Positions 1 to 50,527 of a stretch of DNA of 50,755 nucleotides are shown one piece after another; position 1 is the first letter of the stretch, and each line of letters begins with the position of its first letter. Origin of the DNA: a virus (lineage: Duplodnaviria > Heunggongvirae > Uroviricota > Caudoviricetes); IMG/VR virus record IMGVR_UViG_2908959467_000003, positions 1-50,755 of that record; one strand, 5' to 3'. The notes under the pieces were generated by a model. That model did no database searches. It was not told the DNA's origin and saw only the letters and a list, made by a program, of their open reading frames with translations. Both the position numbers and the translations under genes were made by a program.

Positions 1-1158
1 ATGCTCACCGTTAAGCAGATTGAAGCAGCAAAGCCGAAAGAAAAACCATACCGCCTACTCGATGGTAATGGCCTGTACCTTTATGTCCCTGTATCCGGAA
101 AAAAGGTCTGGCAGCTTCGCTACAAGATTGACGGTAAGGAGAAAATCCTGACCGTCGGAAAATATCCGCTAATGACTTTGCAGGAGGCAAGGGATAAAGC
201 ATGGACCGCGAGGAAAGATATCTCGGTTGGCATCGATCCGGTAAAGGCAAAAAAGGCTTCGTCTAACAACAATTCCTTTAGTGCGATTTACAAGGAATGG
301 TACGAGCACAAGAAGCAAGTCTGGTCAGTAGGCTATGCAACTGAACTTGCAAAAATGTTTGACGACGACATTTTACCTATCATTGGCGGCCTTGAAATTC
401 ATGATATTGAGCCGATGCAACTGCTGGAAGTAATCCGCAGATTTGAAGATCGCGGTGCAATGGAGCGAGCAAATAAAGCCCGCAGAAGATGCGGCGAGGT
501 TTTCCGTTACGCTATTGTCACTGGTAGGGCTAAATATAACCCGGCACCTGACCTTGCTGACGCCATGAAGGGATACCGCAAGAAAAACTTCCCGTTTCTT
601 CCAGCAGACCAGATCCCGGCATTCAACAAAGCACTTGCAACATTTTCAGGAAGTATCGTATCGCTCATTGCGACCAAAGTTTTACGCTACACAGCCCTCA
701 GAACGAAAGAGCTTCGTTCTATGCTATGGAAGAACGTCGATTTTGAAAACAGGATTATCACCATCGACGCCAGTGTGATGAAGGGACGCAAAATTCATGT
801 GGTCCCGATGTCAGACCAGGTGGTTGAACTTCTCACTACGCTAAGCTCCATCACTAAACCAGTATCAGAATTTGTTTTTGCCGGGCGCAACGATAAGAAG
901 AAGCCAATCTGCGAGAACGCGGTGCTACTTGTGATCAAACAAATCGGCTATGAGGGTCTGGAAAGCGGTCACGGATTCAGGCATGAATTCAGCACGATTA
1001 TGAACGAGCACGAATGGCCTTCTGACGCTATTGAAGTGCAACTGGCACATGCCAACGGCGGATCTGTGCGCGGTATTTACAACCATGCTCAGTATCTCGA
1101 TAAGCGCAGAGAAATGATGCAGTGGTGGGCGGATTGGCTTGATGAAAAAACTGAGTGA
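1..1158 (+). CDS. intS: Tyrosine integrase, P4 family (385 aa), IntS-like
   Basis: N-terminal KPYRLLDGNGLYL arm-binding-like region, C-terminal catalytic region (..HGFRHEF..IYNHAQY); recalled similarity to KplE1/CPS-53 IntS. Begins at window position 1. Confidence 0.8.
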   Translation: MLTVKQIEAAKPKEKPYRLLDGNGLYLYVPVSGKKVWQLRYKIDGKEKILTVGKYPLMTLQEARDKAWTARKDISVGIDPVKAKKASSNNNSFSAIYKEWYEHKKQVWSVGYATELAKMFDDDILPIIGGLEIHDIEPMQLLEVIRRFEDRGAMERANKARRRCGEVFRYAIVTGRAKYNPAPDLADAMKGYRKKNFPFLPADQIPAFNKALATFSGSIVSLIATKVLRYTALRTKELRSMLWKNVDFENRIITIDASVMKGRKIHVVPMSDQVVELLTTLSSITKPVSEFVFAGRNDKKKPICENAVLLVIKQIGYEGLESGHGFRHEFSTIMNEHEWPSDAIEVQLAHANGGSVRGIYNHAQYLDKRREMMQWWADWLDEKTE

Positions 1159-1182
1159 CCCACCTTAACAACTATCGAATAG

Positions 1183-1230
1183 CACAAAGCCTTGTAATCA
1201 AGTGCAAGGCTTTGTGTATCCCGTTTTCGC
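1183..1230 (+). terminator. Hairpin terminator downstream of integrase
   Basis: 12-bp inverted repeat CACAAAGCCTTG / CAAGGCTTTGTG (1183..1216) followed by a T-rich tract. Confidence 0.5.
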
Positions 1231-1312
1231 CTAGTTACCACTTCAAAAGTCGATCGGTGGCGATGTCAGTGCTAATATCAGCACAGCAAAAAAGAATGAA
1301 TACGGATGAATA

Positions 1313-3268
1313 ATGAGCTTTCTTTTGAAGACTGACAAAACATTGTCTAAAAATTACCAGCCAGGAGTTGATGGACTCCGTGCTGTTGCCGTCATTTTAG
1401 TTCTTATATTCCATGTAGGGTTCAGTAGTGTTCCAGGAGGGTTTGTTGGCGTTGATGTATTTTTTGTTATTTCTGGTTATCTGATAACTGGAATAATTTT
1501 TAATCAAACTGAGAAGGGAACTTTCAGTTACATTAATTTCATGTTAGCCAGGATAGCAAGACTGTACCCGGCTCTTATAGCAACGCTGATCGCCGTTTTT
1601 GCTGGATGCTTTATTCTGTACTCCCCTTCTGATTTTGTTAGCGTATCTAAATCAGCAATCTATGCTTTGTACTCAGCATCAAATATATTTTTTGCACAAA
1701 GCGTTGGTTATTTCGATACATCATCAGAAATAAATCCATTGTTGCACACATGGTCTCTTGGTGTAGAACAGCAGTTCTATCTTGCATGGCCTCTGATTAT
1801 CGGAGCAGCATATTTAGTAAAAAAGAGCCTTGTGCCATGGGTTCTGGTTATTATTAGTATTGCTTCTCTGGCATCCTCTCAGTGGGCAACTATAAACATG
1901 CAGACTGAAGCGTACTACTGGATGCCGTTCAGGGTTTTTGAGTTGTCTTTCGGCGGACTTGCATTCTTCATTTCTCGATGGATAAAACCATCTGAACTAA
2001 TGAAGGAGTCTATGATGGCTGCGGGACTTGCGATGATAGTATCATCTGCGTTGCTTTACTCATCATCAACTCAGTTCCCTGGTTTGCATGCCATGATTCC
2101 CGTATTGGGTGCCATGCTTTGCATTCTTTCACATGATGCAAAATACGCTGGCTTCGCTGTGAATAACAGGGTCAGCGTTACGATAGGCCTGATATCGTAT
2201 TCAGTTTATCTAATTCACTGGCCTATTATTGTGTTTTACAAATACTGGATATATAGAGAGTTAAATGATATCGAGAAAGCATCATTGATTTTATCTTCGC
2301 TGGCTGTTGGATTCTTAATGTACAACGCAATAGAAAATAAATTCAGAAAGATAAAAATAAATGAGTTTTGCTACAAATCAGTATTGCTTTTATCATTAAC
2401 TATATTGGTTATGATTTCGTATTCATCTTCAATAAAAGACAACGGATTTGCATTTAGAATACAAAATTATAAAGAAAACATGGAAATGCTCAAGCCTGGA
2501 TTTAAAGAATATTTATTCGGAGGCTTTGGGGTTAAGCAAGGTGAAATGGTAGTTCTTGGAGATAAAACCAAAAAGCCATCATTTGTTTTCATGGGTGACA
2601 GTTATGCAAGACAGTATTCATTAGCCATGAGTGAATTTCTTGCAAAGAGAAATCTATCAGCAGCAGCATTTTTCGCTGATGGAGCATATCTATCAAATAG
2701 CGTTTACGTTACAGAAAAAGGGAAGGTTTCTGTATATGGTGTGAAGATAGGAACAAAAGCGATAGATTACTCTAGATATAATAAGATACCACTTGTTTAT
2801 GCACAATCATGGCTTAGGTACATGGGGATGCTATCTGATAAAGATGGTAATGTGTATAAATTCAACGGAGACCATGATTATATGAAATTCAATGCTTCCG
2901 TTATTAACAATATTCAAGAGTACACAAATCAGAAAGTAATTGTTATTGGAAACCACCCGGCAGCAATAGGCTCTGACGGAGGTCTTTCTTGTGTGAGCCG
3001 ACCTTCATATGTTGAAAAGAAATGCATTGATAGTATTTTCAGCACAGAAAGCGGTGATAGGTTAGATAGCAATAATTATTTAAATAAATGGCTATCAGAT
3101 AACGGAAGTATAAAGTTTATAAACCCTTATGATTTCATGTGTAGGAATGGGAGATGTAACCTAGTATCTGACAAAGGTGACGTTATGTATTCTGATGAGT
3201 ATCATCTATCAAGATATGGAGCAAGAAAGGCAATTGAAGGGTTTGGAAATATAATTATCGATATATAA
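1313..3268 (+). CDS. Fused acyltransferase-3 / SGNH-hydrolase membrane protein (651 aa), O-antigen acetyltransferase-like
   Basis: N-terminal multi-TM region with AT3-like motifs (..VDGLRAVAVILV..FFVISGYLITG..), soluble C-terminal domain; AT-rich; sits between int and tailspike where conversion genes are found. Confidence 0.7.
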   Translation: MSFLLKTDKTLSKNYQPGVDGLRAVAVILVLIFHVGFSSVPGGFVGVDVFFVISGYLITGIIFNQTEKGTFSYINFMLARIARLYPALIATLIAVFAGCFILYSPSDFVSVSKSAIYALYSASNIFFAQSVGYFDTSSEINPLLHTWSLGVEQQFYLAWPLIIGAAYLVKKSLVPWVLVIISIASLASSQWATINMQTEAYYWMPFRVFELSFGGLAFFISRWIKPSELMKESMMAAGLAMIVSSALLYSSSTQFPGLHAMIPVLGAMLCILSHDAKYAGFAVNNRVSVTIGLISYSVYLIHWPIIVFYKYWIYRELNDIEKASLILSSLAVGFLMYNAIENKFRKIKINEFCYKSVLLLSLTILVMISYSSSIKDNGFAFRIQNYKENMEMLKPGFKEYLFGGFGVKQGEMVVLGDKTKKPSFVFMGDSYARQYSLAMSEFLAKRNLSAAAFFADGAYLSNSVYVTEKGKVSVYGVKIGTKAIDYSRYNKIPLVYAQSWLRYMGMLSDKDGNVYKFNGDHDYMKFNASVINNIQEYTNQKVIVIGNHPAAIGSDGGLSCVSRPSYVEKKCIDSIFSTESGDRLDSNNYLNKWLSDNGSIKFINPYDFMCRNGRCNLVSDKGDVMYSDEYHLSRYGARKAIEGFGNIIIDI

Positions 3269-3277
3269 TATAAATAA

Positions 3278-3314
3278 TTGTGCGCACTATTTAACTTTTT
3301 CATAGTGCGCACAA
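3278..3314. terminator. Bidirectional hairpin between convergent acyltransferase and tailspike genes
   Basis: 13-bp perfect inverted repeat TTGTGCGCACTAT / ATAGTGCGCACAA with 11-nt loop. Confidence 0.6.
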
Positions 3315-3316
3315 AT

Positions 3317-5473
3317 TTACAGCGTTGGGAAGTTTGTTGATAATGGTACTATTGCATATTCAAGTTTTGTTGGCGGATTATTTGCAGCGCTGTATGTTGA
3401 AAGAGCCTCAAGCACAATATACCCACTCCCGTTGTACCCTGCTTTGAAGCAACTTTGCAGGTTTGCTATGGATGTGTCTCCTGGATTTAACCGCTGATCA
3501 ATGGGTGATTTAAGGTCAGTTGCATCTGCCCTGTCCGTTGCGTCATGCGCACCGGAAGACATGATATAAGTAGCATAATTATTTTTTACACCTCCAGTCA
3601 CTTTTATGTGGAGAAGGTAAAGAGTGCGATCAGATGTAGAACCAGTCAATATCTGTTTATCAAGAGTAATTCGTACCTTTGAGCCATCAGATAACACAGG
3701 TAAAGACTTGCTTAACATTGCTACGCCATTAACAGTATTATCATAACCATTTCCGATATAGTTACCTGAACCTACAAAAGCTGAGTTCATTCGCCAGATA
3801 TCTTCTGCCGTAAATAACCCTGACGTAATGAAGTTACCTGTCCATACGTTTCTGTTTCTTTCTGGTCTTGCATTAAGCACCATTCCAACACCCCCGGCCA
3901 TGAAGTTGCCAGATATAACTGCTCCTGACATATCGGTAGTGTTGATGCATTGGAGTCTTAGGTCTTTGTTAACGCCAGGATCAAGAACCATTTGCATGGT
4001 ATTGCTGTTGATACTAATTCCGGCACACCACATGCCATTAAAACCGTTGTTATTGTTGTTTAACGCCTGTGAAGCGATGAAATTAAATATCCTCTGTTCT
4101 GAAGGATTTGTAGCACCTTTATAGTAGAAAACATTATTAGATATGCTAACAAGTGAGGTGCGCAAGAATATCGCAAAGTCATTTAACGGGTTTTCTTCAA
4201 AATGAAATACGTTGTTCGATATAGAAGATCTGCCACCTAATCCGACGCGAGTGCTGCTATCAAATTGCAATGACATCATCTTAATAGCAGTGTTAACAAA
4301 ACGGTTTGATGTTAAAGATACTTCAAGGCCGCCGGTAAAAGTATCAAATTCACATGCGCATTCCGTATTCCTGTTGAAGAAAAGATTGCCGTTAACATTC
4401 CCACCTACGGTAGCGCCACCAATTTTACCTAAGTCAGAGTTAGCTCCACTCTGCATAAAAACATCAAAGGTGTTATTCGTTACATGGAACATTGACTTGC
4501 GAGGCGTTCCAATGTCGACTGATGCAGTCGTGTTGCCAAGAATCATCAGATATGGATATACCTCACCCTGTTCACCTGACATTCCTGCATCAGAGATATA
4601 CTGATCTGTGTTGTCATCAGTCTTGCAGTAGTTATTATCAACTGAGATATGTACGCTGGTTGGGTCCTGACAGTTAACCATGATGTAGCCAACACCGCAG
4701 TTAAAGCATTGCATATCTTTTATCACCACTCGCGTTGGCAAATTCGCCAGCCCATCAGGGTAATCATTGAAAATTACCTGAGGACGCTGGGTGTGGTATG
4801 CATTTGCGGTGAACTTACCGCCGATAATCTCTACTGATTTTGCGCCAAGCGGATGGAAAATATAATCAATGCCATTGAAGGTAAATTCTCCAGTAGAAGC
4901 ATCGATAATGATGTCTCCTGGGATGGTGACGGGGGCCGTTACATCGTACACACCTGATGCTACAACTCTCGTTTTGTTTGCAACCGCATAATTTACAGCT
5001 GCCTGTAATTTTTCTGACGCATTACTTCCGGGGAATACCTCGGGGACAACCCATTTGATGGCATCCTGTACCGTGCCATATGGCATAATCCCAACAAGAC
5101 CAGCGCCGTCTTGATTAGAAAGCCTAATCTCAAATTGATCAGGGTCGTACTTCAGCACATTAGGGAAATAGAACTGCTGTGATCCATATGCATCGTACAC
5201 AGACATAGAATGACCTTGCACAGTTACAAACTTGGCAATCTGTCCGTTATATACCGGATATCCAGCAGCATTAATGATGATTGGTTGCGAAACAGGAACG
5301 TGAGAGCCATCTTCGTTCTCTACATAAACCTGAATCTGGTTTTCTGGATTTACGGGGTCCGTGTCAATTTTACCGATATAAATTTTGCCATTGGCAACCG
5401 CTTTAAAAGAACGCGCCATAGTGAAAAGTTGCGAAGGCATCGATACGATCACATTGGCTGTAATGTCTGTCAT
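3317..5473 (-). CDS. Tailspike protein (718 aa), P22 gp9-type head-binding domain with divergent receptor-binding domain
   Basis: N-terminus MTDITANVIVSMPSQLFTMARSFKAVANGKIYIGKIDTDPVNP.. matches the recalled P22 tailspike head-binding domain; remainder is G/N-rich beta-helix-like and unlike P22. Confidence 0.85.
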   Translation of the reverse strand: MTDITANVIVSMPSQLFTMARSFKAVANGKIYIGKIDTDPVNPENQIQVYVENEDGSHVPVSQPIIINAAGYPVYNGQIAKFVTVQGHSMSVYDAYGSQQFYFPNVLKYDPDQFEIRLSNQDGAGLVGIMPYGTVQDAIKWVVPEVFPGSNASEKLQAAVNYAVANKTRVVASGVYDVTAPVTIPGDIIIDASTGEFTFNGIDYIFHPLGAKSVEIIGGKFTANAYHTQRPQVIFNDYPDGLANLPTRVVIKDMQCFNCGVGYIMVNCQDPTSVHISVDNNYCKTDDNTDQYISDAGMSGEQGEVYPYLMILGNTTASVDIGTPRKSMFHVTNNTFDVFMQSGANSDLGKIGGATVGGNVNGNLFFNRNTECACEFDTFTGGLEVSLTSNRFVNTAIKMMSLQFDSSTRVGLGGRSSISNNVFHFEENPLNDFAIFLRTSLVSISNNVFYYKGATNPSEQRIFNFIASQALNNNNNGFNGMWCAGISINSNTMQMVLDPGVNKDLRLQCINTTDMSGAVISGNFMAGGVGMVLNARPERNRNVWTGNFITSGLFTAEDIWRMNSAFVGSGNYIGNGYDNTVNGVAMLSKSLPVLSDGSKVRITLDKQILTGSTSDRTLYLLHIKVTGGVKNNYATYIMSSGAHDATDRADATDLKSPIDQRLNPGDTSIANLQSCFKAGYNGSGYIVLEALSTYSAANNPPTKLEYAIVPLSTNFPTL

Positions 5474-5608: not shown

Positions 5609-5869
5609 ATGTACAGCAAATACGACGAGGCGCAGTTTCACTTGAGACTTCCGCATGAACTTCACGCGAAAATTAAGCAGCGTGCGAAGATGAATAACAG
5701 GTCGCTGAACTCAGAGATAATTGCAGCGATTGAAGAATCATTGGCTAAACAAAGCTCTGCATCCGGTTACATTGACGATGCAGAGCGTATGGCAGAACAA
5801 CAATCCGATATGGTAAAGAAAATTGTCTTTGATACGCTCAAAGAGCTATATAAAAAAGACAGCAGCTAA
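5609..5869 (+). CDS. mnt: Mnt-like ribbon-helix-helix repressor (86 aa)
   Basis: MYSKYDEAQFHLRLPHELHAKIKQRAKMNNRSLNSEII.. resembles P22 Mnt; ATG at 5609 preceded by GGTGAGG. The longer track ORF from 5210 is an upstream extension. Confidence 0.7.
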   Translation: MYSKYDEAQFHLRLPHELHAKIKQRAKMNNRSLNSEIIAAIEESLAKQSSASGYIDDAERMAEQQSDMVKKIVFDTLKELYKKDSS

Positions 5870-10048: not shown

Positions 10049-10507
10049 CTATCTCCCGTGATTCAGGAAGTCGATTAGTTCTTCGCGTGTGGCGCTGTAA
10101 AACGTCACGTCATCCACGCCTTTGAAGTATTTCTTGATGGTTCCTACACGCTTAAGGCCAATCATTGCGCAGTACATCTGACCGTGGCGGAATTTGCGTG
10201 CAGCGAACGATGTTACGCACTGAACGGTGGTGTTAGTCAGAATGTATCGCCAGAACGACAGCCCGATTTCCTTGCTGAAGCCGCGAATCTCTGGCAGGTA
10301 CATGGCGTGGCAATCAAAGGTCAGCGGCTGAATCTCCTGATAGTAAACAATTCCGCCGAACTGCCCGTGCACGTTCACCTCAAAGTAACGGCATTCAGGC
10401 TTGTAGTCGTATCCATCGCCGTTGTTGCTCCCGGCGATAATGTCAGGGTGATTTCCTACTGCTTCGATCAGGTCGATGTTTCGCGTTGGTTTGAAATGAA
10501 TCATCAC
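10049..10507 (-). CDS. Head completion / tail accessory protein, P22 gp14-like (152 aa)
   Basis: Synteny between tail needle and gp7. Confidence 0.7.
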
Positions 10508-11352
10508 TGCTCCGCGATTATCTTGATGGTTGTGGCAGTAAACGCCGCACCATTCGACTGAATGGTTAACGTACTGCCATTTGTGGCAAGAAAGCCGTCT
10601 TTATCCACGCTGAAGAATGTAGCTAACAGGATGTTGTCGGTTGTTGTCGCCGCATTACGACTGCTGACCAGTGTGTCAGGAACAGAGCCGGAAAAGGTTA
10701 GCTGCATTGATCTGTTGGTGGTTCCGCTGGGCCACGTCCCGACAATCGACAGCTTGAAGAACAAGGTTTTGTTCTCGTTGAACACAACCATCTTGTTGTT
10801 AACGGTGTCGAAGAATGGTGCCAACGTGCCGGATGACGGCGTGAGCGTTTTCAGCAGGCTAACAAGGTTGGTCGGCGCTGTCGGGATGGTTACAGATACG
10901 CCAGAGTAAACAACCTCTGACTTCTTGCGAGTAGTGGCATACTCCAGAGCATCGATGCGCGTTTCATGGTCTGAAACCTGCGATTCCAGCGACTGAACTC
11001 TGGTATCAAGCGACGCAATATCGCTTTCATTCTGAGCGATTCGCGTTTCATGTTCCTGAAGAGTTGATTCTGCCTGGCTGATTCGCTCCTCATGATTAAC
11101 AAGCGTTGCTTCCGCAGCAGAAATTCGCTGCTCATGGTCAGCGAGAATCACATCCTGCTCATCGTTCCTGACTTGTGCGTCATAAGCGCCCTGTCCGGCC
11201 TCGTTGGCCTTGTTAGCCACGTTACCAACATCAGTGCCCTGTGCGATAACGTAAAGCAGATACGACTGCGAGAAGATATTGCGTGGAAGAACTGATGTAT
11301 CGAGCCGCGTAGCTTGGATGATTACCGGCACATTGAGATTCGAATCCGCCAT
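10504..11352 (-). CDS. Tail needle, P22 gp26-like with extra C-terminal knob domain (282 aa)
   Basis: N-terminus [43 protein letters not shown].. matches recalled gp26; heptad coiled coil; about 100 extra C-terminal residues as in Sf6-type needles. Confidence 0.8.
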
Positions 11353-40220: not shown

Positions 40221-40380
40221 TGAACACTTCTCACTAAGTCCAATTAATTCCATAACTCACTGTTTTAACTGATATCATCTCCTTATACTCGTCCAGCAAA
40301 GTACCATTATTTCTAATGGAATCTATACATCTTTGCGTATAACATTGTGTATAACTGAGTTCGATCTTTTTTCTATACAC

Positions 40381-41556
40381 ATGCTGCTATCTGACATCCA
40401 AATAAAAAGAGCAAAACCGAAGGACAAACCCTATACGCTTAACGATGGTATGGGGCTATCACTCCTGATCGACACAGCGGGCAGTAAAGGCTGGCGTTTT
40501 CGCTATCGCTTTGCAGGTAAGCCTAAGATGATTTCCTTTGGCGTATATGGCGATGTGTCGTTGGCACAGGCACGTACCAAACGTGATGAAGCGCGTTCGA
40601 TGTTAGCCAAAGGGATAAACCCAAGTGAAGCCAGAAAAGCAGATAAGATTGCTTTGCAGTTCGCGCATGAGAACAGCTTTGAGTCTGTGGCCAGAGAATG
40701 GCACTCATCGAAAAAAGCCACCTGGTCAGAGGGTTATGCAAAAGAGGTTCTCAATTGTATGGAAAAGGATATTTTTCCTTTTATCGGCCAGCGCCCAATT
40801 GAGCAGATTGAACCATTAGAACTGCTAACCGTCCTGCAAAAAATAGAGAAAAGAGGTGCGCTAGAGCAAACCAGTAAGATCCGCCGCCGCTGTGGTGAAG
40901 TGCTTCGTTATGCTGTTGCCACTGGTAGAGCAAAGTATAATTTTGCACCCGATTTAGCTATCGCACTCAACAAACCTAAAACCCAACACTTCCCGTTCCT
41001 GACTGAAAGCGAGTTGCCCGAGTTCGTTAATGCTCTGGATAACTATCAGGGCAGTTTAGTTACCAAATACGCCACGCAGCTGTTGATGCTAACAGGCGTG
41101 CGAACAATTGAACTACGTGCAGCGGAATGGGCTGAGTTTGATTTAGATAATGCCTTATGGGAGATCCCCAAAGAACGGATGAAGAAACGCCGCCCCCATC
41201 TGGTTCCGTTATCAACTCAGGCGATCAATATCCTGAAAAAGCTGCAAGAAATAACAGGGAATTACAGCCTCGTTTTCCCTGGCCGAAATGACGTCAGGAA
41301 ACCAATGAGCGAAGCCAGCATCAACAAAGTGATAAAACTACTGGGTTATCACGGTCGGTTAACGGGTCACGGTTTCAGGCATACCATGAGCACCATCTTG
41401 CATGAGCATGGGTTTGAAAGTGCCTGGATTGAAATGCAGCTTGCGCATGTTGATAAGAACTCTATTCGAGGTACTTACAATCATGCGCAATATATTAAAG
41501 ATCGACAAGTAATGATGGAATGGTACGCTAGCTTATTAAATACGACCTGCTATTAA
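40381..41556 (+). CDS. Tyrosine integrase, P4 family (391 aa)
   Basis: MLLSDIQIKRAKPKDKPYTLNDGMGL.., ..RRRCGEVLRYAVATGRAKYNFAPDLA.., ..HGFRHTMST..; paralogous to the int at 1..1158. Confidence 0.85.
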   Translation: MLLSDIQIKRAKPKDKPYTLNDGMGLSLLIDTAGSKGWRFRYRFAGKPKMISFGVYGDVSLAQARTKRDEARSMLAKGINPSEARKADKIALQFAHENSFESVAREWHSSKKATWSEGYAKEVLNCMEKDIFPFIGQRPIEQIEPLELLTVLQKIEKRGALEQTSKIRRRCGEVLRYAVATGRAKYNFAPDLAIALNKPKTQHFPFLTESELPEFVNALDNYQGSLVTKYATQLLMLTGVRTIELRAAEWAEFDLDNALWEIPKERMKKRRPHLVPLSTQAINILKKLQEITGNYSLVFPGRNDVRKPMSEASINKVIKLLGYHGRLTGHGFRHTMSTILHEHGFESAWIEMQLAHVDKNSIRGTYNHAQYIKDRQVMMEWYASLLNTTCY

Positions 41557-42486
41557 ATCCAGCATGAAACAAATATGGTGAGTAATTTGATACTGTTTGT
41601 TTTTTGGCAACCCAGGGAAATGCCTTACAGTTGGTTGACTATTGTAATAATAATAGTTAAGACCAATGTTGCTGCCAAACTGGGTTGGATGTTGGGGAAC
41701 AAGATTTGTAATTTGATCTGAAACATCTAAAAATTTTGCAGTAACATTTGAACTTCCTCGTTGCGTGTTGCTTGATACAAAATGACGAATCCAAACTGTA
41801 TTCGCTTGTAAATTCTTGAACACCAAATGTGCGGCAACAGCAGAAGGTTGACCACCTCCAAGATCTAGTACCTGGCCAGTAATTGTATAATCGCCAAATC
41901 CTAAGTAATTTTGTCCCACGAATTGATGTGCGTGCGTGAAAAGTTCCGGCCCATTATAATCAGCATTTTTTGCTAACTTTCTAAAGTTATCGCTAATAAT
42001 AATTAACTTCGACAAAGGAAGAAGAGCGCACTGATTAGGAAGCATTTTATTATTTAAAACAACATGATAACTAATCAATTGATTTGTCGCCAACAACTGA
42101 ATATCAGAGTTGGATAATGATGGATTATCATATAGAAGTGCAACTCGTCTATTTAAGTTAGCATTCAACCAATTATTAATATCATTAATCGTTGTATTGG
42201 GCTGAATAAGATATCCAGAGATGATATTGTTTTTATTTGTTAATACACTTGATAAATTTTGATTTAAAGTTAAGACGTTATTGTGTGAAGAAAAATCTTC
42301 CTGATAAGGATTAAGGATAACAATTATGTCAGAATTCCAAACATTTAAACATGTTAATAAATTTCTCGTATTGACGTTAATTGGTTCTAAAATTGGTAGC
42401 AGACCATTTAGGCTAACTCCCTTCGCAACGAGGTCCCTAAGGCATAATAACTCTGTACTTCTCGCATACAAATATGGGCTATACAT
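41536..42486 (-). CDS. Cargo protein B (316 aa), unknown function; second gene of an AT-rich two-gene operon
   Basis: N/S/L-rich low-GC ORF, 21 nt after gene A; no recognised motif; 3' end overlaps the convergent int by 21 bp. Confidence 0.6.
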   Translation of the reverse strand: MYSPYLYARSTELLCLRDLVAKGVSLNGLLPILEPINVNTRNLLTCLNVWNSDIIVILNPYQEDFSSHNNVLTLNQNLSSVLTNKNNIISGYLIQPNTTINDINNWLNANLNRRVALLYDNPSLSNSDIQLLATNQLISYHVVLNNKMLPNQCALLPLSKLIIISDNFRKLAKNADYNGPELFTHAHQFVGQNYLGFGDYTITGQVLDLGGGQPSAVAAHLVFKNLQANTVWIRHFVSSNTQRGSSNVTAKFLDVSDQITNLVPQHPTQFGSNIGLNYYYYNSQPTVRHFPGLPKNKQYQITHHICFMLDLIAGRI

Positions 42487-42507
42487 AACTTACAACTCCT
42501 GAGGATA

Positions 42508-43389
42508 TCAACAAATTTTAATTTTTACATCCATCAAATTCATGATGAATTCTTTTTGCTTTCTTGATAATGGTGTTGCATAACCTAAAACACGTAAACA
42601 TGCTGGAAGAGAATAAATATAATCCAAAAAAACTTTGTCGTTACATCTTTTTTTCATAGCAGAGATAAAGTATTTATTTGCTATGTTTAATGGCATCTGC
42701 ATGAATATCTCTTTACAATATTCATAAACCAATCCATTAGGCATATTTATTTTAGTTGAAGTGTAATCTTCTATTATAGCTAAGAACTCTTCCTTTCTAA
42801 GAACTGAAAACAAGCTGTCACTTTTAATATAATCAATATTTGAATCTGCCTCCTTAATGACACTCAATTGATCTTTTTTATTCAAAACCATAACTCCCAC
42901 TCTGGGGAGATTTAAAGCACAATATTTACTTGCATACTCTGGATGTGTAACTATATACACTTTATCAAAAACATCCAAATAATCAGGGGCTTGAGTAATC
43001 AACCTTTTTGGTGAATCATACTCTGTCTTAATCTCGTAAGCTGTAGACGTACCATTAAACACCGCAACATCCACTATAGAGTTTTTAATTGGTAACTCTA
43101 TGGACGACGAACTTGTTTTTGGGCTGTGCTTACCGAATATTATTTTATTGACAAGTGCTGTCTTATAAACATATTCATTTCTATAATTCAGACGCAAAAA
43201 ATCATATAATGATGTAAATAAATCCCTTAGTGAAATCTCATGTTCATTATTATCATTGTTTGAAAACAGTGTTTCATAGCAGTAAGAATCAAAACTCCCA
43301 AATAAATCCGAAATATCCTTACCTTTTGCTAAGGATGAAAAAATGGGGCGACGGAAAAATTTAGCATATTCCTTTTTATTATGACTCAT
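42508..43389 (-). CDS. Cargo protein A (293 aa), putative PD-(D/E)xK nuclease-fold protein
   Basis: ..SIELPIKNSIVDVAVFNGTSTAYEIKTEYD.. gives the E / hydrophobic-D / E-x-K arrangement; AT-rich. Confidence 0.6.
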   Translation of the reverse strand: MSHNKKEYAKFFRRPIFSSLAKGKDISDLFGSFDSYCYETLFSNNDNNEHEISLRDLFTSLYDFLRLNYRNEYVYKTALVNKIIFGKHSPKTSSSSIELPIKNSIVDVAVFNGTSTAYEIKTEYDSPKRLITQAPDYLDVFDKVYIVTHPEYASKYCALNLPRVGVMVLNKKDQLSVIKEADSNIDYIKSDSLFSVLRKEEFLAIIEDYTSTKINMPNGLVYEYCKEIFMQMPLNIANKYFISAMKKRCNDKVFLDYIYSLPACLRVLGYATPLSRKQKEFIMNLMDVKIKIC

Positions 43390-44069
43390 TACTCATACTC
43401 TATAAACATCATGCAATTTGATAAGTTATGACGAATTCTCACCATCCAGTTACTACCTGTACATACTAATCAAAAAAAACGAGTACGCAAGATACGAAAG
43501 TACTTTTCTTGTTCACCAGTTAGCTTACCTTGATCCTCACCAGCGACTGGAAGATAGGTAGCAGTATATGTGGAAACCTTCCCCTAGCTAGGTCTACAAA
43601 CGTAGTTTGGGCATTTAGGCTCCACGATTCACGGTTTGACACGGCCTGATATCTGCACATTCGTTTTGATATGCAGCAATCGTGAAAAAGGGAAAATATA
43701 CGCTCGACAGACCAAAACGGCACTACACCGCACCCGCCTGCGGTTTTCATATCACTAAAAATTTTCAGCCTGGATTTTTTACAAACGATACCGCCAGTCC
43801 GTGCCAGTCCTCGAGATGTACTGCGATACAGGAACTGAAAAGAATGAAAAGAAATTCATTTTTTTTCAGTTTTACTGTCCGTCGAATCTATGGCCTGAAT
43901 ACGCAACTCTATGATATTAAATGGATAATTAATTTTAGGTGTGTGATTTTATGAAGGTTTGTGAAACATGAAGAAGATAACCAGTTGAAAAATAATAATT
44001 TTATGACCGTATAAACTGAAATCCTGTGTTCAGGTTCCGGGAACAGATCGGCCATTCCCGACGCATACT

Positions 44070-44342
44070 TTACCCATTCTTTTGCGCAGCCAGCAGCAAC
44101 TTTAAAGCCTTTTCCCGTTCCTCGGGTGGAATTGCATCAATCAGCTCTTTAACCCTTCCCTGCCCGTTCAGCGCGCTTGGACTAACGGAATGGGAGAAAG
44201 CAACATTCATCACAAACGAGTGACCGCACTCCACATTAGAGCAATAGCAGTACACATCGTACAGTTGTGGGTGTTTCCTGTTTGTTTTACCTATCCGTGC
44301 TACTGCCTGACATGTGGGGCAGTACATTCTCATCATCTTCAT
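44070..44342 (-). CDS. ogr: Ogr/Delta-family zinc-finger late-gene activator (90 aa; start may be an internal Met)
   Basis: C-x2-C...C-x4-C pattern (MYCPTCQ..CYCSNVEC) as in P2 Ogr / P4 Delta. Confidence 0.7.
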   Translation of the reverse strand: MKMMRMYCPTCQAVARIGKTNRKHPQLYDVYCYCSNVECGHSFVMNVAFSHSVSPSALNGQGRVKELIDAIPPEEREKALKLLLAAQKNG

Positions 44343-44408
44343 CGTTCTGTGCCCTATACTGTTGCCCGCCAGAAGAAGGGATTTGGATCCCTACCTCTTG
44401 TTCTGAAC

Positions 44409-44598
44409 GTGTAACACTGGTAACACGTGTAACGCTATTGATTTAAAAGGATTTAATCTGTTACCAGTTAGCAAAATCAAGAGGTAACGCGTGGTAACAC
44501 ACCATTTTTTGTTACCTCTGTTACCAGTCAGTATTTTTGACTGGTAACACTGAAGAACCGCATCAGTAACGGGTGTTACCTCTGTTACCAGTGTTACC
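44409..44598. repeat. Iteron cluster: at least 12 copies of (G)GTAACAC / GTGTTACC in about 190 bp, P4 crr/ori-like
   Basis: Repeats read directly; motif TGTTACC is one base from the recalled P4 alpha-binding octamer TGTTCACC. Confidence 0.65.
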
Positions 44599-44624
44599 TC
44601 ATAAAAATAAGACTCACGCGATAA

Positions 44625-47312
44625 TCACTCAGGTTCAGCGCTTCCCAGTACCTGTGTATTGAACTGGTACACACGTTTAAGCCCTATTTCTGGCAGGCGA
44701 ATGCTGTTTTGCGTCCGGCCATCTTCACCGGGTTTCAGCCAGCCCGCGTCCACACACAACCTGGCCACCTTACGCGAGTCAAATCCCTTACAGATCTCCT
44801 TCCAGCCTGACGGGAGAACGTAGAACGTCACAACCGGCTCTGTCACGTTGTCTCCTTTATCGACTTTTCTGAATCCCATCATTGAAACAGGCCGGTTCCT
44901 GTCGTCATTCCAGTCAGCAAACCGACTGAACTGATTACGCGTCATGAAGTCCCGAACCTGTTCAAGTGCCGCTTTATCTTCCTGATTAGCTGTATGGCCC
45001 CGGTCAGCCATCCATGCAGCCAGACAGCTTTGAGCGGCACGAAAGGCCTCTCCCTCCGGCCATCCTGTGATGCCCGCTTTTGTGGCCAGCTCCCCGGCCA
45101 TCGCAACCAGAGCAAAACGGGTAACAGCCCGGCCAACCTGATTCCCGGCATTTTCCGGCGTCAGCCTTCGGGTATACTCTTTCAATAAGGCTTTCGCCTG
45201 ACTGGTCAGTTCCGGCAGATCAGCGGTCAGGCAATACAGCCAGTCGCGGAATGGTGCACCATGATAATGCGCTACGTGCTGCTCAAGATGCTCAGCCAGG
45301 GTTTTCCCGCTACTGAAGCCATGAAGTTCTTCAAACACGCCATACTTGCCCGAATCGCTTGGGATCTGGATCATTCTGACCTCAACCCCGGCATACGTAC
45401 GTTCCCCGGCGCTTGCCGCATGCTCTACCAGTGACAGTTCCCCGGTAGACAGAAACAACAGATTCCAGCGGTTGGTTTCCCTTACCGAACCATCTGTTCT
45501 GGCTCTGGCTTTGCCCTGCCCGTTAGCCAGCATATAAGCGATATTCCCCGCCTCCCTGCCGTCAACCTCCCGGATTTCATCCAGCATCAGCGTGGCATCA
45601 TTGCGGCGGCTCGCCGTTCCTTCTAAGGCATTCCCCGTCGCCCGCCACGTATGCCAGAAATCTGTTCCACCACATACTGATGCAGCCACTTTCATCGTCG
45701 TGGTTTTACCGTCTGTGGATTCCCCTTTGAGGTGATAACCTCCACCGCCGATACCAACCAGTTTCAGAAGGGGGGCAGCAAATGCCAGACTCACCGCAAA
45801 GGCAAGACGGGCATTCTTTATGCAATAACGGCCTATATTTTCACGCCAGCCCTCTGATGTGCCGCTGACACGAAAATCACGCCCCTGCACACTCGATGTT
45901 TGTAAGATGACTGACTGGGCTTCGCGCCCTATCACTTCATCCTGGAGAACGTAAACCCCGCCGTGCCAGCCAGTTTTATTCACACAGGTTACTTTTCTGT
46001 CCGGTTTACACAGCGAGATATATTCCATCAGGAATGCTCTGGCCATGCCATTAATGTTGATGTAAGAAAGCCCGTTAACCAGCAGAACGCGGCGCAGTTC
46101 TTCCCCGCTACCGCCCAGCATCTCCATCGGCATTGCCCATTTACGGCTGTTTCCGTTGGTATCTTCCCATTCCAGCAAACGCCCGTAATTACTTCCATCA
46201 GCATCACTGGTGATTGCCGTCACCCGCAACGGACTGCAAATTTTGATATTACGTATCTCTGTATCACCATCAGACTTATTAACCAGCTTGTCGTACCACA
46301 AATATTCTTTTGTCAGCCGGAACCCTTCTGGTAAACGGGTCTGCCCTTTGCCATGCAGCGTCATTTCTTCACGAAAGGCATCTCTCGCCCGTTCTTTCCC
46401 CACTTCCTGCCGATAATCATCCCAGTCAGCCTTATGGCGTACCGGAGGGAGCGTTACCCAGCCATCCACCGCTTTGGCGGCTTTCTCTGCCTGAATACGC
46501 CCGGTGTTTTCTTTGCCGTCAGCCAGATCATTATCTCCGGCCAGAATGATCCGAGTTTCCGGCCAGCGTTTTCGGATCTGCTCCGTCACCTTCAGTAAAT
46601 TGGTGGCAGCGACAGCCGCCACGATCCATCCTTCAGTCAGCAGACTGACGGTAAGCGCCGTGGCAAAACCCTCAGTGATAATCACCTGTTCAGGTGTTTC
46701 AGCGGGTATATCGGTCAGGGCAATGAATGCGCCAGACAGCTGGCTACCGGGCAGCAGACTTTTATCCCCGTCAGGATTGATAAGCTGGCCACCAGTAATA
46801 TTCCCGGAAATATCCGTCAAAGGCAGCAGTAATGAACCGGTGGAAAATGTTATTCCGGCCAGATTCAAAGGCTGTGACAGCAAGGGAAGTGAATACCCGT
46901 GTAAGCCCTTATTTGTCAGATAGACCGGCTCACCATTGCAGGACTGCTGTCTGAGTCTGGTATATCGCTCCGCGCCCGCTTCTTTTCCTGCGGCCTTTTT
47001 CCTGGCTGGCAATGCGGGCTTCTCCTGTATTTCTGGTAATGCAAGCGCCTCAGATACCATCCCGGCGACTTCTTTTATCTTTCTTCCTGTCACCAGACGA
47101 ACCAGATCAAGACCATCGCCATGACCGCACTGATTACAAAACCACGTCCCTCGCCCCGCTTTATCGTCCAGTCGAAAACGATCTTTTCCACCACAGGCAG
47201 GGCAAGCCCCATGATGTCCTGCGGACGGTACTTTAATACCTAATGCTGACAGGATATAAGGCCAGCGCCCAATTGCAGCTCCGGAAATCGTGGATACAGA
47301 CGGTGTTTTCAC
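44625..47312 (-). CDS. Primase-helicase, P4 alpha-type (895 aa)
   Basis: N-terminal zinc-binding primase motif (CPACGGKDRFRLDD..WFCNQCGHGDG), central P-loop (GESTDGKTTT). Confidence 0.85.
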   Translation of the reverse strand: MKTPSVSTISGAAIGRWPYILSALGIKVPSAGHHGACPACGGKDRFRLDDKAGRGTWFCNQCGHGDGLDLVRLVTGRKIKEVAGMVSEALALPEIQEKPALPARKKAAGKEAGAERYTRLRQQSCNGEPVYLTNKGLHGYSLPLLSQPLNLAGITFSTGSLLLPLTDISGNITGGQLINPDGDKSLLPGSQLSGAFIALTDIPAETPEQVIITEGFATALTVSLLTEGWIVAAVAATNLLKVTEQIRKRWPETRIILAGDNDLADGKENTGRIQAEKAAKAVDGWVTLPPVRHKADWDDYRQEVGKERARDAFREEMTLHGKGQTRLPEGFRLTKEYLWYDKLVNKSDGDTEIRNIKICSPLRVTAITSDADGSNYGRLLEWEDTNGNSRKWAMPMEMLGGSGEELRRVLLVNGLSYININGMARAFLMEYISLCKPDRKVTCVNKTGWHGGVYVLQDEVIGREAQSVILQTSSVQGRDFRVSGTSEGWRENIGRYCIKNARLAFAVSLAFAAPLLKLVGIGGGGYHLKGESTDGKTTTMKVAASVCGGTDFWHTWRATGNALEGTASRRNDATLMLDEIREVDGREAGNIAYMLANGQGKARARTDGSVRETNRWNLLFLSTGELSLVEHAASAGERTYAGVEVRMIQIPSDSGKYGVFEELHGFSSGKTLAEHLEQHVAHYHGAPFRDWLYCLTADLPELTSQAKALLKEYTRRLTPENAGNQVGRAVTRFALVAMAGELATKAGITGWPEGEAFRAAQSCLAAWMADRGHTANQEDKAALEQVRDFMTRNQFSRFADWNDDRNRPVSMMGFRKVDKGDNVTEPVVTFYVLPSGWKEICKGFDSRKVARLCVDAGWLKPGEDGRTQNSIRLPEIGLKRVYQFNTQVLGSAEPE

Positions 47313-47719
47313 AGCAGCACCTCCTGACCTTCCGGCTTCACAAATTCAAAACCTTCGGGTAGTTCGCCATCAGGTGCTCCGAAAATAATATCCCGGTAAA
47401 CCTCACGCATCTCTGTGACACCAAAAACTGACAGGCGAATATTTTCTGACATAAAGCCTGGTTTAAGCATTTTTTCCAGTTTCTCTGCGGCCAGTATGCA
47501 ACCAGCATCAGCCCCAAACTCATTCACCCACGGCATTTCAATATGGTAAATAATATTACTCACCACTTTTTCGTGGGAGAGTTCTATTCGTTCGCCATCT
47601 TCAATATAAACAGGTTCATTATGAACACGCACCATTAAGGAAATGAATGCATCAGCAATGTAGTAGCGTAAGACTGCTGTTCGTAAAGCATGCGCCTTTA
47701 AATTTTGATTATTATTCAT
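47309..47719 (-). CDS. Hypothetical protein (136 aa) upstream of the primase
   Basis: Overlaps primase start; position analogous to P4 epsilon/orf151. Confidence 0.45.
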   Translation of the reverse strand: MNNNQNLKAHALRTAVLRYYIADAFISLMVRVHNEPVYIEDGERIELSHEKVVSNIIYHIEMPWVNEFGADAGCILAAEKLEKMLKPGFMSENIRLSVFGVTEMREVYRDIIFGAPDGELPEGFEFVKPEGQEVLL

Positions 47720-47948
47720 CGCGCATCACTCCCTTAATTGTGCTGGTTTCCTTAACAACGCCATCCAGTTGTTCGGCAATACAGGCCACTAAAGCCGCAG
47801 CGCCTTCCGCTGAAACAGTTCTCGCTCCATTCACTGTGGGCACGGACAAGACCTCTGCAAGAAACTCACTGGCCAGTGCCGCCCGTAACAGACGACTCTC
47901 CCCCTGTTCACTCAATATGCAGCCTTGCTTAAAATTCATGGATTTCAT
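47712..47948 (-). CDS. Hypothetical protein (78 aa)
   Basis: Operon member; no motif. Confidence 0.4.
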   Translation of the reverse strand: MKSMNFKQGCILSEQGESRLLRAALASEFLAEVLSVPTVNGARTVSAEGAAALVACIAEQLDGVVKETSTIKGVMRDE

Positions 47949-48148
47949 GCAACCACCTCCCCGGCTCTTTTCACAGGGATACGGGCAGCAAAGCTCAGGA
48001 TAAATTCAGTGGCAAGTTTAAGGCGTGCAGCATGCTCGCATTCTGCGATTACACGCACAGGGCGTGGACGGGCATCACGGTCTGTACGGCGGACAGCCAG
48101 AAAGACAAAGGTAAATTCAGGGTGAGATAAAGCAGGGACTGTAGCCAT
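47945..48148 (-). CDS. Small hypothetical protein (67 aa), first gene of the alpha operon
   Basis: ATG at 48148 with GAAGGAGG RBS; the longer track ORF to 48535 is an unsupported extension. Confidence 0.4.
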   Translation of the reverse strand: MATVPALSHPEFTFVFLAVRRTDRDARPRPVRVIAECEHAARLKLATEFILSFAARIPVKRAGEVVA

Positions 48149-48160
48149 AATGGCAACCTC

Positions 48161-48425
48161 CTTCAGATAGCGGGTAACGCTACCACCGGAGTTCCTACGC
48201 TCATGGGTGGTAGCCCAGACGGGGGTAGGAATACCGGCTCTGAAGGATACCGGCCAGCCCGAAAGCTGCCCCGCCTGGACTACCATAATTCTGATGATGT
48301 GGCGTAAAAAATAAAAAAATACAATCAGCCACCACACCATAAATTTTAGGTGAGTCAAAGCTGCGACACAAAAAAACACGCCTGGCGCGTGTAGTATCGC
48401 CTTCAGATAACACGGGTTCCTACGC
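48161..48425 (-). promoter_or_regulatory. Candidate RNA immunity region (P4 seqA/cI/seqC-like) with internal terminator
   Basis: Two direct copies of CTTCAGATA..GTTCCTACGC (48401..48425, 48161..48200) flank a reverse-complement copy (48225..48247); hairpin + U7 at 48370..48392. Confidence 0.4.
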
Positions 48426-48577
48426 CCGGCTGCCGATTTTGCGGCAACCTTTAAACTATATCCCGCGCATTCCTGGTGAGGCAAGAAATTTATAACCGAA
48501 AACTGATCATTGCCTGGATTAATTAACGCTGGCATGCTTAAGCCTCTGCTTAAAAATAGTTCTTCATTTTTCCTGAT

Positions 48578-48608
48578 GCTGTAAACGAGACCCGCCTCTG
48601 AGCGGGTC
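48578..48608 (-). terminator. Hairpin terminator after capsid-like gene
   Basis: Minus-strand GACCCGC-UCAGAG-GCGGGUC followed by UCGUUUAC. Confidence 0.45.
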
Positions 48609-48622
48609 TTTCTGTCGCTAAG

Positions 48623-49627
48623 TCAATCCGCAAACGTCAGGGCGCTCTCATCGACAGCCGCGTACAGTTCAGGTTCACCGAGTGCATAACCTTCATTGCG
48701 CAGGTAGGAATGCACGTATTCACTGCTTTCATCATCAAACTCAGCACGAAACCAGCGTGTTATCGCCTGAGTGTAAATATGCAGATTATCCAGCGTCGTT
48801 ACTGCCAGACGCTTACCCGGCATAAACGGGGGAATAAACGCAAAGCGGCCAGCAACAGAACTTGTAGCCATCTGTGCCGCATTCACATCAGACGGGCGGT
48901 CTGCGGCATTAAATAACTTCAGGCGTTGATGTGCTGCCAGCTCTGCCCCAACCAGTACAACCAGACGAGGATCTTCACGAAACTGCTCAGCAATAAGCTC
49001 TGTAATCAGATGGTTGGCCAGAGCATCAATATTTTTCCAGGTGCCAGTCTCTCCCAGAGTGACAGGCTCAGAGATGATTTGCTTTCCGTTCCCGTAGGCT
49101 TTCGCCAGTGCATGCCAGCCAATATTGACATCCTCGCCTTTTTTATTGATTTCCGGGTTTGTAGTATTTGCAATCGACACACCATTGAAACCGACCCGCA
49201 GCATGTCCAGCGCATATGCCTGGGCAAAAAAGCTCTCAACCGTTTTCTCAAACTCATCCGGCACGCCGGTATGGTAAATATGAGACATATCGGAATAGCT
49301 GATCCGGGCGCAGGTATCCGTCTCTGTCAGAAAGAACTCCGTACCATTGATTGCCATTTTTTTGTGGAAACGGCCACCATCCACACGTCCGGTATACAGT
49401 TCACTGGCACCAATATTGACGGCATTACCTGACACGGCGTTAACATCACGTAGGGTAATATTTTTAATAAGCCACCCGGATTCCAGAATTGAGGTACGCA
49501 GTATATTTTCAGTAGGTTCGCTTAATGCAAAGCGTCTGTTTGATTCTTCCTGATAGTTAGTGCCAGTGACGAATTTATTATGATAACGACGTGCTGCGTC
49601 CGGCCTTTCAGTTTTGAAGGCATACAT
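48623..49627 (-). CDS. P2 gpN-family major capsid-like protein (334 aa)
   Basis: Blocks alignable to recalled P2 gpN (GFNGV, ..IGW.., DALANHLITELIAEQFREDPRLVVLVG, LDNLHIY); from memory, unverified. Confidence 0.5.
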   Translation of the reverse strand: MYAFKTERPDAARRYHNKFVTGTNYQEESNRRFALSEPTENILRTSILESGWLIKNITLRDVNAVSGNAVNIGASELYTGRVDGGRFHKKMAINGTEFFLTETDTCARISYSDMSHIYHTGVPDEFEKTVESFFAQAYALDMLRVGFNGVSIANTTNPEINKKGEDVNIGWHALAKAYGNGKQIISEPVTLGETGTWKNIDALANHLITELIAEQFREDPRLVVLVGAELAAHQRLKLFNAADRPSDVNAAQMATSSVAGRFAFIPPFMPGKRLAVTTLDNLHIYTQAITRWFRAEFDDESSEYVHSYLRNEGYALGEPELYAAVDESALTFAD

Positions 49628-49649
49628 AGTTTTTCACCTTTTTAAGTAT

Positions 49650-50510
49650 TTAAGAAAAGATTTTATTTTTGTACTCAGTAACCAGATTGTATTTCATTAC
49701 ATGCTCAACATAATCCCGGTCACTTACGACTGAACGTAATACATAATTATCTGCTCGATAGTACTCCCTGTAAGCCATAGCTCTTGCCATTCCACCGTTA
49801 TTTAATACATAACGATCAGTTGGAACGCTACAACGACTAATAATTTCACTCACGGAATCAGATAAAGACTTGAGTGCATCAGTAATAAATTTAATATCAC
49901 GGACAACGTCACTGTCATTAAATACAGAAATAAAATCAGCAGGGATCTGGCCGGATTGAGGAAATATATTCAGTAAACGCTTATCGATTCCCTTCCCAAT
50001 GTAGTTTCCTTCATCGGCCAGTACTCCCGGCAAAAGCTTGATCGTGCTCAATCGACTATGTTGTTCATTCAACCGGGAAACAGCCAGATGGTAATACCGT
50101 TCAGCATCCGCTCGTTCAGCATGCCCCATTTTATTCGTTTTGGCTTCAGCAATGCTACTGACGCCGTTTTTTGAGAATGTGCTTTTCCATGCAACTTCCG
50201 CATTTGTCACTTCACGCTGCCGGAAAGATAACTCTTCCTCTTCCTGACGACACAACTGGGCATAACGGCTCAGGAGCAGGTTGATCTCATTCGCCACAGT
50301 TTCCGTATCAGGTACTGTTAACCCCGTAAGTGAATACAGCTTTTCACCTTTAGCTCGCAGCTTATTCAGTGAATATATTTCAATAATACGCACAATACAG
50401 GCCGTGTCGCTATGAGTCTCTTTAAATGATCTTACTTTGTAACTATCTAACACCGACACATGTTCGTTCTTAATTGATGCCAATTTCTTCTTAAAAACAT
50501 TGTCAACCAT
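49650..50510 (-). CDS. Hypothetical protein (286 aa), AT-rich, unknown function
   Basis: Low-GC ORF between AlpA and the capsid-like gene; no recognised motif. Confidence 0.5.
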   Translation of the reverse strand: MVDNVFKKKLASIKNEHVSVLDSYKVRSFKETHSDTACIVRIIEIYSLNKLRAKGEKLYSLTGLTVPDTETVANEINLLLSRYAQLCRQEEEELSFRQREVTNAEVAWKSTFSKNGVSSIAEAKTNKMGHAERADAERYYHLAVSRLNEQHSRLSTIKLLPGVLADEGNYIGKGIDKRLLNIFPQSGQIPADFISVFNDSDVVRDIKFITDALKSLSDSVSEIISRCSVPTDRYVLNNGGMARAMAYREYYRADNYVLRSVVSDRDYVEHVMKYNLVTEYKNKIFS

Positions 50511-50527
50511 ATATTTGCCACCTCAAT

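Follow-up and report, generated by a model that had tools for sequence, protein, structure and literature searches.

The stretch analysed here (IMG/VR record IMGVR_UViG_2908959467_000003, positions 1 to 50,755; the window, throughout) holds an apparently intact P22-like (Lederbergvirus-type) prophage of Escherichia coli. Its tailspike adds an uncharacterised member to the P22-type class of mosaic spikes. An earlier note on this DNA had drawn attention to that mosaic and to a knobbed tail needle; both its observation and its interpretation are correct but describe a well-known pattern, and what we can add lies in the distal module of the spike, which is very rare, has no solved structure and is mobile together with the gene of an acyltransferase. 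Taken as a whole, we think it probable that these are the O-antigen-cleaving tailspike of a P22-like prophage and an acyltransferase that masks the same polysaccharide. Coordinates of all features are collected in Table 1.

The conserved end of the spike is readily recognised. Pfam family PF09008 (Head_binding) covers residues 1-113 over its full model (1-113/113, E 2.5e-66), and the same residues align to structures of Sf6 gp14 (PDB 7sg7, E 1.4e-65), to which the domain is about 92% identical across residues 1-113, and of P22 gp9 (E around 1e-52), which bears out the claim of a P22-type N-terminal head-binding domain. DNA similarity to Sf6 and CUS-3 spans 5133-5488/5518 and stops sharply at 5133, that is, at codon 114, right after KYDPDQ. 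From the other direction, similarity to the unrelated phage vB_EcoS_swi2 (hereafter swi2) covers 3324-5116, from codon 120 to the end of the gene, and similarity to an epsilon15/SPN1S-type prophage (L011; L and P numbers are our handles for loci and proteins) begins at 5107. In an alignment of the whole family, every adaptor type meets the module at one joint just upstream of GAGLVGIMPYGTVQDAIKWV; recombination at this conserved linker (…GAGLVGIMPYGTVQDA…) has carried the block between phages whose tails are built differently. The matches of the head-binding domain, the distal module and the needle are all far beyond chance.

Beyond the joint, the receptor-binding part is unrelated in sequence to the spikes of P22, Sf6, HK620 and CUS-3, as the earlier note had also held. 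A tblastn search of 50,697 phage records matched these four and some 180 others over the N-terminus only; the alignments reached residues 1-121 for Sf6, 1-124 for CUS-3 and 1-166 for HK620, and whatever lies past residue 114 or so in them is gapped, weak extension. When the Sf6 spike was compared by hhalign and the HK620 spike by BLASTP, the head-binding domain and a few linker residues aligned and nothing was hidden beyond, so that catalytic residues cannot be transferred from either enzyme. Residues 120-718, approximately, had no match in the PDB by sequence, either with phmmer and the single sequence or with a profile of 26 family members, both of which matched N-terminal adaptor regions only, and a Pfam search of the distal module assigned no family. 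The description of this part as rich in glycine and asparagine is fair, if moderately so (9.6% and 9.9%, against 6.2% and 7.1% in the head-binding domain). Such a composition is the usual look of beta-helices with asparagine ladders.

The mosaic occurs outside this window too, and the phenomenon is not new. It was stated in 2008 that P22-like spikes share residues 1-115 and then continue in unrelated forms (PMC2629481). The exact sequence of the present spike is already in RefSeq (WP_089180260.1/ASL32983.1), its 90%-identity cluster has 47 members named only 'phage head-binding domain-containing protein', and full-length relatives of 95-98% identity occur in E. coli M6/M9 and others, the M6/M9 copy (95%) standing in the same context. 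Full-length identity to a single known tailspike, which the earlier note had set against its own view, therefore exists among database proteins but not with any characterised tailspike; since no full-length relative is a characterised one, the spike can still be called mosaic relative to every studied tailspike.

Structure prediction of the distal part, suggested earlier as a check, was run with AlphaFold2 on residues 114-718 using the family alignment, and gave a right-handed beta-helix followed by a beta-sandwich, with a mean predicted local distance difference test (pLDDT) score of 80 and a predicted template-modelling (pTM) score of 0.79. In the model a disordered linker leads to a cap helix (approximately residues 152-165), a right-handed beta-helix (169-550), a short helix and a C-terminal beta-sandwich (572-710); the region from about residue 554 to the end is also the most variable among relatives. 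A distal right-handed parallel beta-helix is the receptor-binding domain expected of a Lederbergvirus spike, and the best structural neighbours are phage tailspike depolymerases together with beta-helix glycanases or lyases. The predicted fold would be that of a canonical depolymerase beta-helix. A polysaccharide lyase, which would act by beta-elimination on an acidic O-antigen or capsule, is one way of reading the module, and an unlikely one in our estimation; we favour a hydrolase. Among the residues that are invariant down to 40% identity are D286, D287, D337, D347, E371, E375, D377 and D432, and of these acidic residues D337, D347, E375 and D377, with others, sit on the body of the helix. 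D337 or D347, together with E375 or D377, might be the catalytic acids.

Relatives P0013 (959 aa) and P0019 (946 aa), listed with loci L005 (2625-5465) and L006 (2578-5418), have an extra C-terminal GDSL/SGNH esterase of about 230 residues past the beta-sandwich (PF13472, E 1e-12). The prophage encoding P0019 carries, in addition, an AT3-SGNH acyltransferase whose SGNH allele differs, and esterase-bearing spikes suggest an arms race of acetylation and deacetylation. If deacetylation is used in this way within the family, it might be asked whether the spike in the window only binds its receptor, or deacetylates it, without depolymerising. We regard this as very improbable: a Pfam search finds no esterase domain in the window's spike, its beta-helix, which is under strong purifying selection, has retained many acidic residues that do not vary, and spikes that depolymerise typically have a beta-helix fold with a groove at the centre.

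The module belongs to a small family. A word-indexed search of 5.8 billion proteins returned 32 clusters, while an exhaustive HMMER search of 1.84 billion representatives gave 26 matches at E<=1e-3 and 10 at E<=1e-30; the whole module is present in only 2 of 5,426 complete E. coli genomes. Within it there is a patchwork, in that relatives differ from the window in separate patches of 60-120 residues (314-443, 444-503 and 564-623) or from residue 354 onwards. The ratio of non-synonymous to synonymous substitution rates (dN/dS) is 0.06-0.2 in every module of the tailspike and of the acyltransferase, from which we conclude that both genes are functional. On the same values, diversifying selection on the module is rejected as an average property.

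The module is attached to structures of several kinds. It is joined to five or more different N-terminal adaptors, in phages that are P22-like, epsilon15-like, N4-like, of swi2 type, and large with contractile tails. The P22 head-binding domain is the adaptor in prophages of E. coli, Citrobacter and Hafnia; an epsilon15/SPN1S/TL-2011b-type N-terminus, 82% identical to that of the SPN1S tailspike, is another; a third is N-terminal in a 990-aa protein from an N4-like contig, which also has genes for N4 gp1 and gp2; and there are at least two further N-termini of tail-fibre type. The adaptor of PF18668 TSP1/gp66 type is found both in swi2, whose genome has a tape-measure gene, and on a 142-kb contig (L010) that has genes for a sheath initiator, the baseplate and several spikes. 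Among named phage proteins the closest is gp01 of swi2 (Swiduovirus), annotated as a tail fibre or head-binding-domain protein, which is co-linear with the window's spike over residues 114-718 and 92% identical there. The two differ in that gp01 carries the PF18668 adaptor where the window has the P22 head-binding domain, swi2 is a phage of another type with a tape-measure protein, and no acyltransferase gene follows gp01. Like the window's spike, gp01 is uncharacterised; the literature that we found on swi2 comprises passing mentions, with no host or receptor information.

The second component is the acyltransferase encoded convergently with the spike. It combines an AT3 domain (PF01757, residues 18-334, E 5e-32) with an SGNH domain (PF19040, residues 413-640, E 1e-24), matches phrog_6705 'O-antigen acetylase' (E 3e-141), and keeps all of the motifs R23/H34, RXXR at 80-83 (RIAR), GDS at 428-430 and DxxH at 628-631 (DEYH). 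It has, then, both the domain fusion and the motifs of AT3-SGNH O-antigen acetyltransferases of the OafA, OafB and family-2 GtrC type, the motif requirement being that given in PMC4413052. Its identity to phage O-antigen acetylases in GenBank phage records is only about 28-31%, and its 90% cluster has 108 members.

The strongest evidence that the two genes travel together comes from the epsilon15/SPN1S-type prophage, which matches window positions 1312-5107 in one blastn high-scoring segment pair of 3,796 bp at 97.5% identity. This segment runs from the start codon of the acyltransferase to about codon 122 of the spike, and the genes that flank it in the other prophage are unrelated, those for holins and an endolysin lying at one end and that for a T7 gp14-like protein at the opposite end. 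Sf6 gives the reciprocal picture: it has no match to window positions 1149-5132, though the flanking int (96%) and gp16 (96%) match, so that in the window the acyltransferase and distal spike jointly take the place of the block of oac and receptor-binding domain in Sf6. The GC content of the block is 36-42%, against approximately 50% in the neighbouring virion genes, which is consistent with a foreign origin.

The pairing recurs in the temperate relatives. A convergent AT3-family acyltransferase gene follows the spike in every temperate context examined whose sequence passes the tailspike stop (the window and L008, M9, L005/6, L007, L011, L013, L014, L015, L016, L019-L021, L022 as a fragment only, L023 and L024; in L009 and L017 the sequence ends before the acyltransferase position). 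It holds even at a module identity of only 45%, in a Hafnia prophage, and in Hafnia-type copies on two other adaptors. There is no acyltransferase gene in the available sequence of three lytic contexts, namely swi2 (L001 = L018), the large contractile-tail phage (L010) and the N4-like contig (L012). In P0020 and the O178:H19 variants the spike is paired with a non-homologous, AT3-only acyltransferase of 335 aa, which is the size of Oac. These last spikes, in E. coli O178:H19 2012C-4431 (L024, 2686-5870) and in L020 (4662-7849), are 75% identical overall, being the same as the window's to about residue 290 and diverged thereafter, and lie at the same argW/intS locus; among the variants, a host serotype is named for this P0020-type spike alone (O178:H19). 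In Citrobacter freundii (L007, 8210-10165) the acyltransferase frame is full-length and stop-free while the stored gene call is a 316-aa SGNH product only, and the short product probably reflects an error in gene calling and not a real truncation.

In proposing how these proteins act, we suppose that the head-binding domain would dock the trimeric spike onto the tail hub, as its homology to the Sf6 and P22 tail structures indicates, and that the distal module would bind and cleave a host surface polysaccharide, most probably O-antigen, as an endoglycosidase. Cleavage would let the virion work down to the outer membrane, which would then be contacted by an Sf6-type needle consisting of plug, coiled-coil shaft and TNF-like knob, and DNA would be ejected by way of the gp7/gp20/gp16 homologues. 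Once the prophage is established, the acyltransferase expressed from it may O-acetylate the same polysaccharide, as its position and the precedents below suggest, and the lysogen would no longer be a substrate for the spike. Such acetylation would exclude the same or related phages and would shield the lysogen's own O-antigen from spike made by the prophage. By analogy, O-antigen is favoured as the receptor over capsule, with colanic acid also on the list, since O-antigen is the substrate of OafA and OafB, AT3-SGNH enzymes that have been characterised (PMC9558356). In enzymes of this kind it is the SGNH domain that carries out the last step, transfer to the acceptor, and the choice of acceptor seems to be narrowed by periplasmic sequence found only in AT3-SGNH fusions (PMC9558356).

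The closest experimental analogue is the Salmonella prophage BTP1, which like the window is P22-like and has a tailspike gene convergent with that of an AT3 acetyltransferase, GtrC, of about 640 aa, with a periplasmic C-terminal domain and an RXXR motif. There, acetylation blocks cleavage by the spike and so protects the O-antigen; when the acetyltransferase is lost the O-antigen becomes shorter, an effect that depends on the spike (PMC4413052). The BTP1 spike is a P22-type endorhamnosidase, 70% identical to that of P22, whereas the window's module is unrelated. In Shigella phage Sf6, gp14 (an endorhamnosidase; PDB 7sg7, 2vbk) and oac occupy the same genome position, again as a spike gene and a convergent O-antigen acetylase gene with int next to them; gp14 has no detectable sequence or profile similarity to the window's spike after residue 114 or thereabouts, and Oac is an AT3-only enzyme with approximately 28% partial similarity to the AT3-SGNH enzyme here. 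CUS-3 repeats the arrangement with other parts. It has a P22-type head-binding domain (97% identical in the tblastn segment), a foreign depolymerase fused at the same joint and a polysaccharide O-acetyltransferase gene, neuO, adjoining the spike; but the depolymerase is an endosialidase, NeuO does not belong to the AT3 enzymes and the target is the K1 capsule. The HK620 tailspike (an endo-N-acetylglucosaminidase; PDB 2vji and mutants) has 9-11% identity to the module, with no homology past the head-binding domain and a few linker residues. By analogy with BTP1 and Sf6, the two proteins are most likely a depolymerising tailspike specific for O-antigen and, as its partner, an acetyltransferase for lysogenic conversion.

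Several observations weigh against this reading. The AlphaFold2 model is that of a monomer; PHROGs places the module in phrog_29018, 'unknown function', the family being uncharacterised; and promoter and terminator scans around the tailspike and acyltransferase genes gave nothing above the shuffled expectation. The module is probably specific for a particular O-antigen of E. coli, Citrobacter or Hafnia, and could be used in serotyping, retargeting of tailocins and host-range engineering. Its practical value is modest and the understanding of P22-like adsorption is unchanged; its interest is rather that the pairing of module and acyltransferase across unrelated phages offers a clean natural system in which to ask whether receptor recognition and receptor masking are exchanged as a unit.

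We also considered a co-adapted 'specificity core', made up of the tailspike's distal half and the acyltransferase's SGNH half, which selection, and not mere linkage, would keep together. Divergence in L005 and the Hafnia loci is centred on the two facing 3' ends: the L005 spike is 97-100% identical at residues 114-353 and 56-63% at 354-718, and its acyltransferase 98-99% at residues 1-313 and 27-38% at 314-651. The SGNH side is, moreover, the half implicated in acceptor specificity (PMC9558356), and the pairing persists to 45% module identity and across genera. However, a replaced block that spans the intergenic region gives the same pattern without selection, the acyltransferases of Citrobacter (dS about 0.12) have been shared far more recently than the spikes (dS 0.5-0.8), P0020-type spikes pair with a non-homologous AT3-only enzyme, and only about three independent alleles have been sampled. 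Non-contiguous co-variation between patches of the two genes was tested and rejected, since the small variable patches of spike and acyltransferase assort independently (L002, L016, L019); this test was under-powered, because a contig scan with one genome per species confirmed no loci and a scan of viral contigs only 8. On balance we find selection for the pair possible but doubtful. The corresponding assignment of parts is a tentative one, with odds clearly against it: the facing 3' halves (distal beta-helix with beta-sandwich, and SGNH domain) would be the specificity core, and the AT3 domain and the proximal beta-helix with its linker the recombination arms. If true, a single exchange would re-target both the polysaccharide attacked and the polysaccharide masked, and the unit would be portable among virions of podovirus, siphovirus and myovirus type.

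The tail needle is a simpler matter. The earlier note had described a P22-like N-terminus and coiled coil with an extra knob that P22 lacks, and this is what is found. Residues 1-137/144 align to P22 gp26 structures (E about 1e-44), giving the plug and coiled coil, and the knob family PF16532 matches residues 108-282 over the whole model (E 1.8e-116), the knob being approximately 98% identical to PDB 3rwn (Sf6) and 4k6b (HS1). All four of the residues listed as contacting L-glutamate (E146, K200, S248 and D250; PMC3741392) are conserved. The needle is also co-linear with Sf6 gp9 and 98% identical to it over the whole protein, with no notable difference from the Sf6 and HS1 needles with TNF-like knobs (PMC3741392), and its exact sequence is present on 319 contigs. 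The Sf6-type knob is common among the P22-like phages of Escherichia and Shigella: of 164 P22-like genomes it occurs in 69, each of them from one or other of these two genera, with at most 4.9% divergence (Leavitt et al., PMC3741392). The proposal that both adsorption proteins have swapped distal modules consequently holds for the tailspike; the needle is an ordinary one of Sf6 type, 'swapped' relative to P22 only and not a fresh exchange, and adds nothing new.

The order of genes agrees with this assignment to the P22-like phages. Leftwards from about 20 kb, the minus strand encodes terminase, portal, scaffold, coat, head-completion proteins of gp4/gp10 type and the needle; 3' of the needle follow a DUF2824 (P22 gp14-like) protein, three ejection proteins, a Mnt/Arc-type repressor on the plus strand and the tailspike, and past the tailspike the acyltransferase and integrase genes lie on the plus strand. 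The order gp10, needle, gp14-like, gp7/20/16, mnt, tailspike, acyltransferase, int is the same as in Sf6 (where gene 14, the tailspike, is followed by oac, int and attP), and as in Lederbergvirus the tailspike gene ends the late operon, after the ejection-protein genes and beside the conversion genes and int. In related prophages yfdC, a tRNA-Arg gene (argW) and intS lie directly to the left, so the window begins at the integrase, just inside attL, with the argW attachment site just outside.

Table 1. Positions in the window of the tailspike, its neighbours and the other features discussed
Feature	Position	Strand	Basis
IntS-type integrase	1..1158	+	96% DNA identity to Sf6 int; left prophage end
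Two-gene block, acyltransferase and distal tailspike module, 3.8 kb	1312..5107	.	Common to a different phage lineage; low GC
Convergent AT3-SGNH acyltransferase, 651 aa, predicted O-antigen O-acetyltransferase for lysogenic conversion	1313..3268	+	
Tailspike, 718 aa	3317..5473	-	Open reading frame with exactly these limits
Tailspike residues ~554-718, short helix and C-terminal beta-sandwich	3320..3814	-	Model secondary structure, identity profiles
Tailspike residues ~123-553, cap helix and right-handed parallel beta-helix, predicted polysaccharide-binding/depolymerase body	3815..5107	-	
Recombination joint, residues ~114-122 (FEIRLSNQD), between KYDPDQ and GAGLVGIMPYGTVQDAIKWV	5108..5134	-	Sf6/CUS-3, swi2 and L011 breakpoints
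Tailspike residues 1-113, P22-type head-binding (tail-hub docking) domain	5135..5473	-	PF09008, PDB matches, DNA similarity
Mnt/Arc-type repressor gene, 86 aa, between gp16 and tailspike	5609..5869	+	PF03869 and PF11423
Tail needle, 282 aa	10504..11352	-	Open reading frame with exactly these limits
Needle residues 141-282, Sf6-type TNF-like knob	10507..10932	-	PF16532; PDB 3rwn, 4k6b
Needle residues 1-140, gp26-type N-terminal plug and trimeric coiled-coil shaft	10933..11352	-	P22 gp26 structures 2poh, 3c9i, 4lin, E ~1e-44
Tyrosine integrase of second element	40333..41556		
Low-GC (30-36%) open reading frame of second element	41536..42486		No Pfam or PADLOC match; only phrog_34524 'unknown function'
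Low-GC (30-36%) open reading frame of second element	42508..43389		PADLOC model PDLC02989 'cll', E 1e-18
Toprim/DUF927 primase of second element	44625..47312		
P2-family major capsid protein of second element	48623..49627		

The Mnt/Arc-type gene has no adjoining ant (antirepressor) gene and is kept in relatives; it is an immI remnant, as in several P22-like phages. The homologous prophage of E. coli M6/M9 adjoins torT, and its integrase remnant in M9 (L002, 6759-6842) is 84 nt only; this copy seems to have lost the integrase or to occupy a different site. Finally, a second mobile element (40333-50755) abuts the prophage and, besides the genes in Table 1, encodes an Ash-family protein and an unassigned open reading frame of 286 aa. 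It looks like a phage satellite, either P4-like or resembling a capsid-forming phage-inducible chromosomal island, in tandem with the prophage, and it possibly carries defence cargo.

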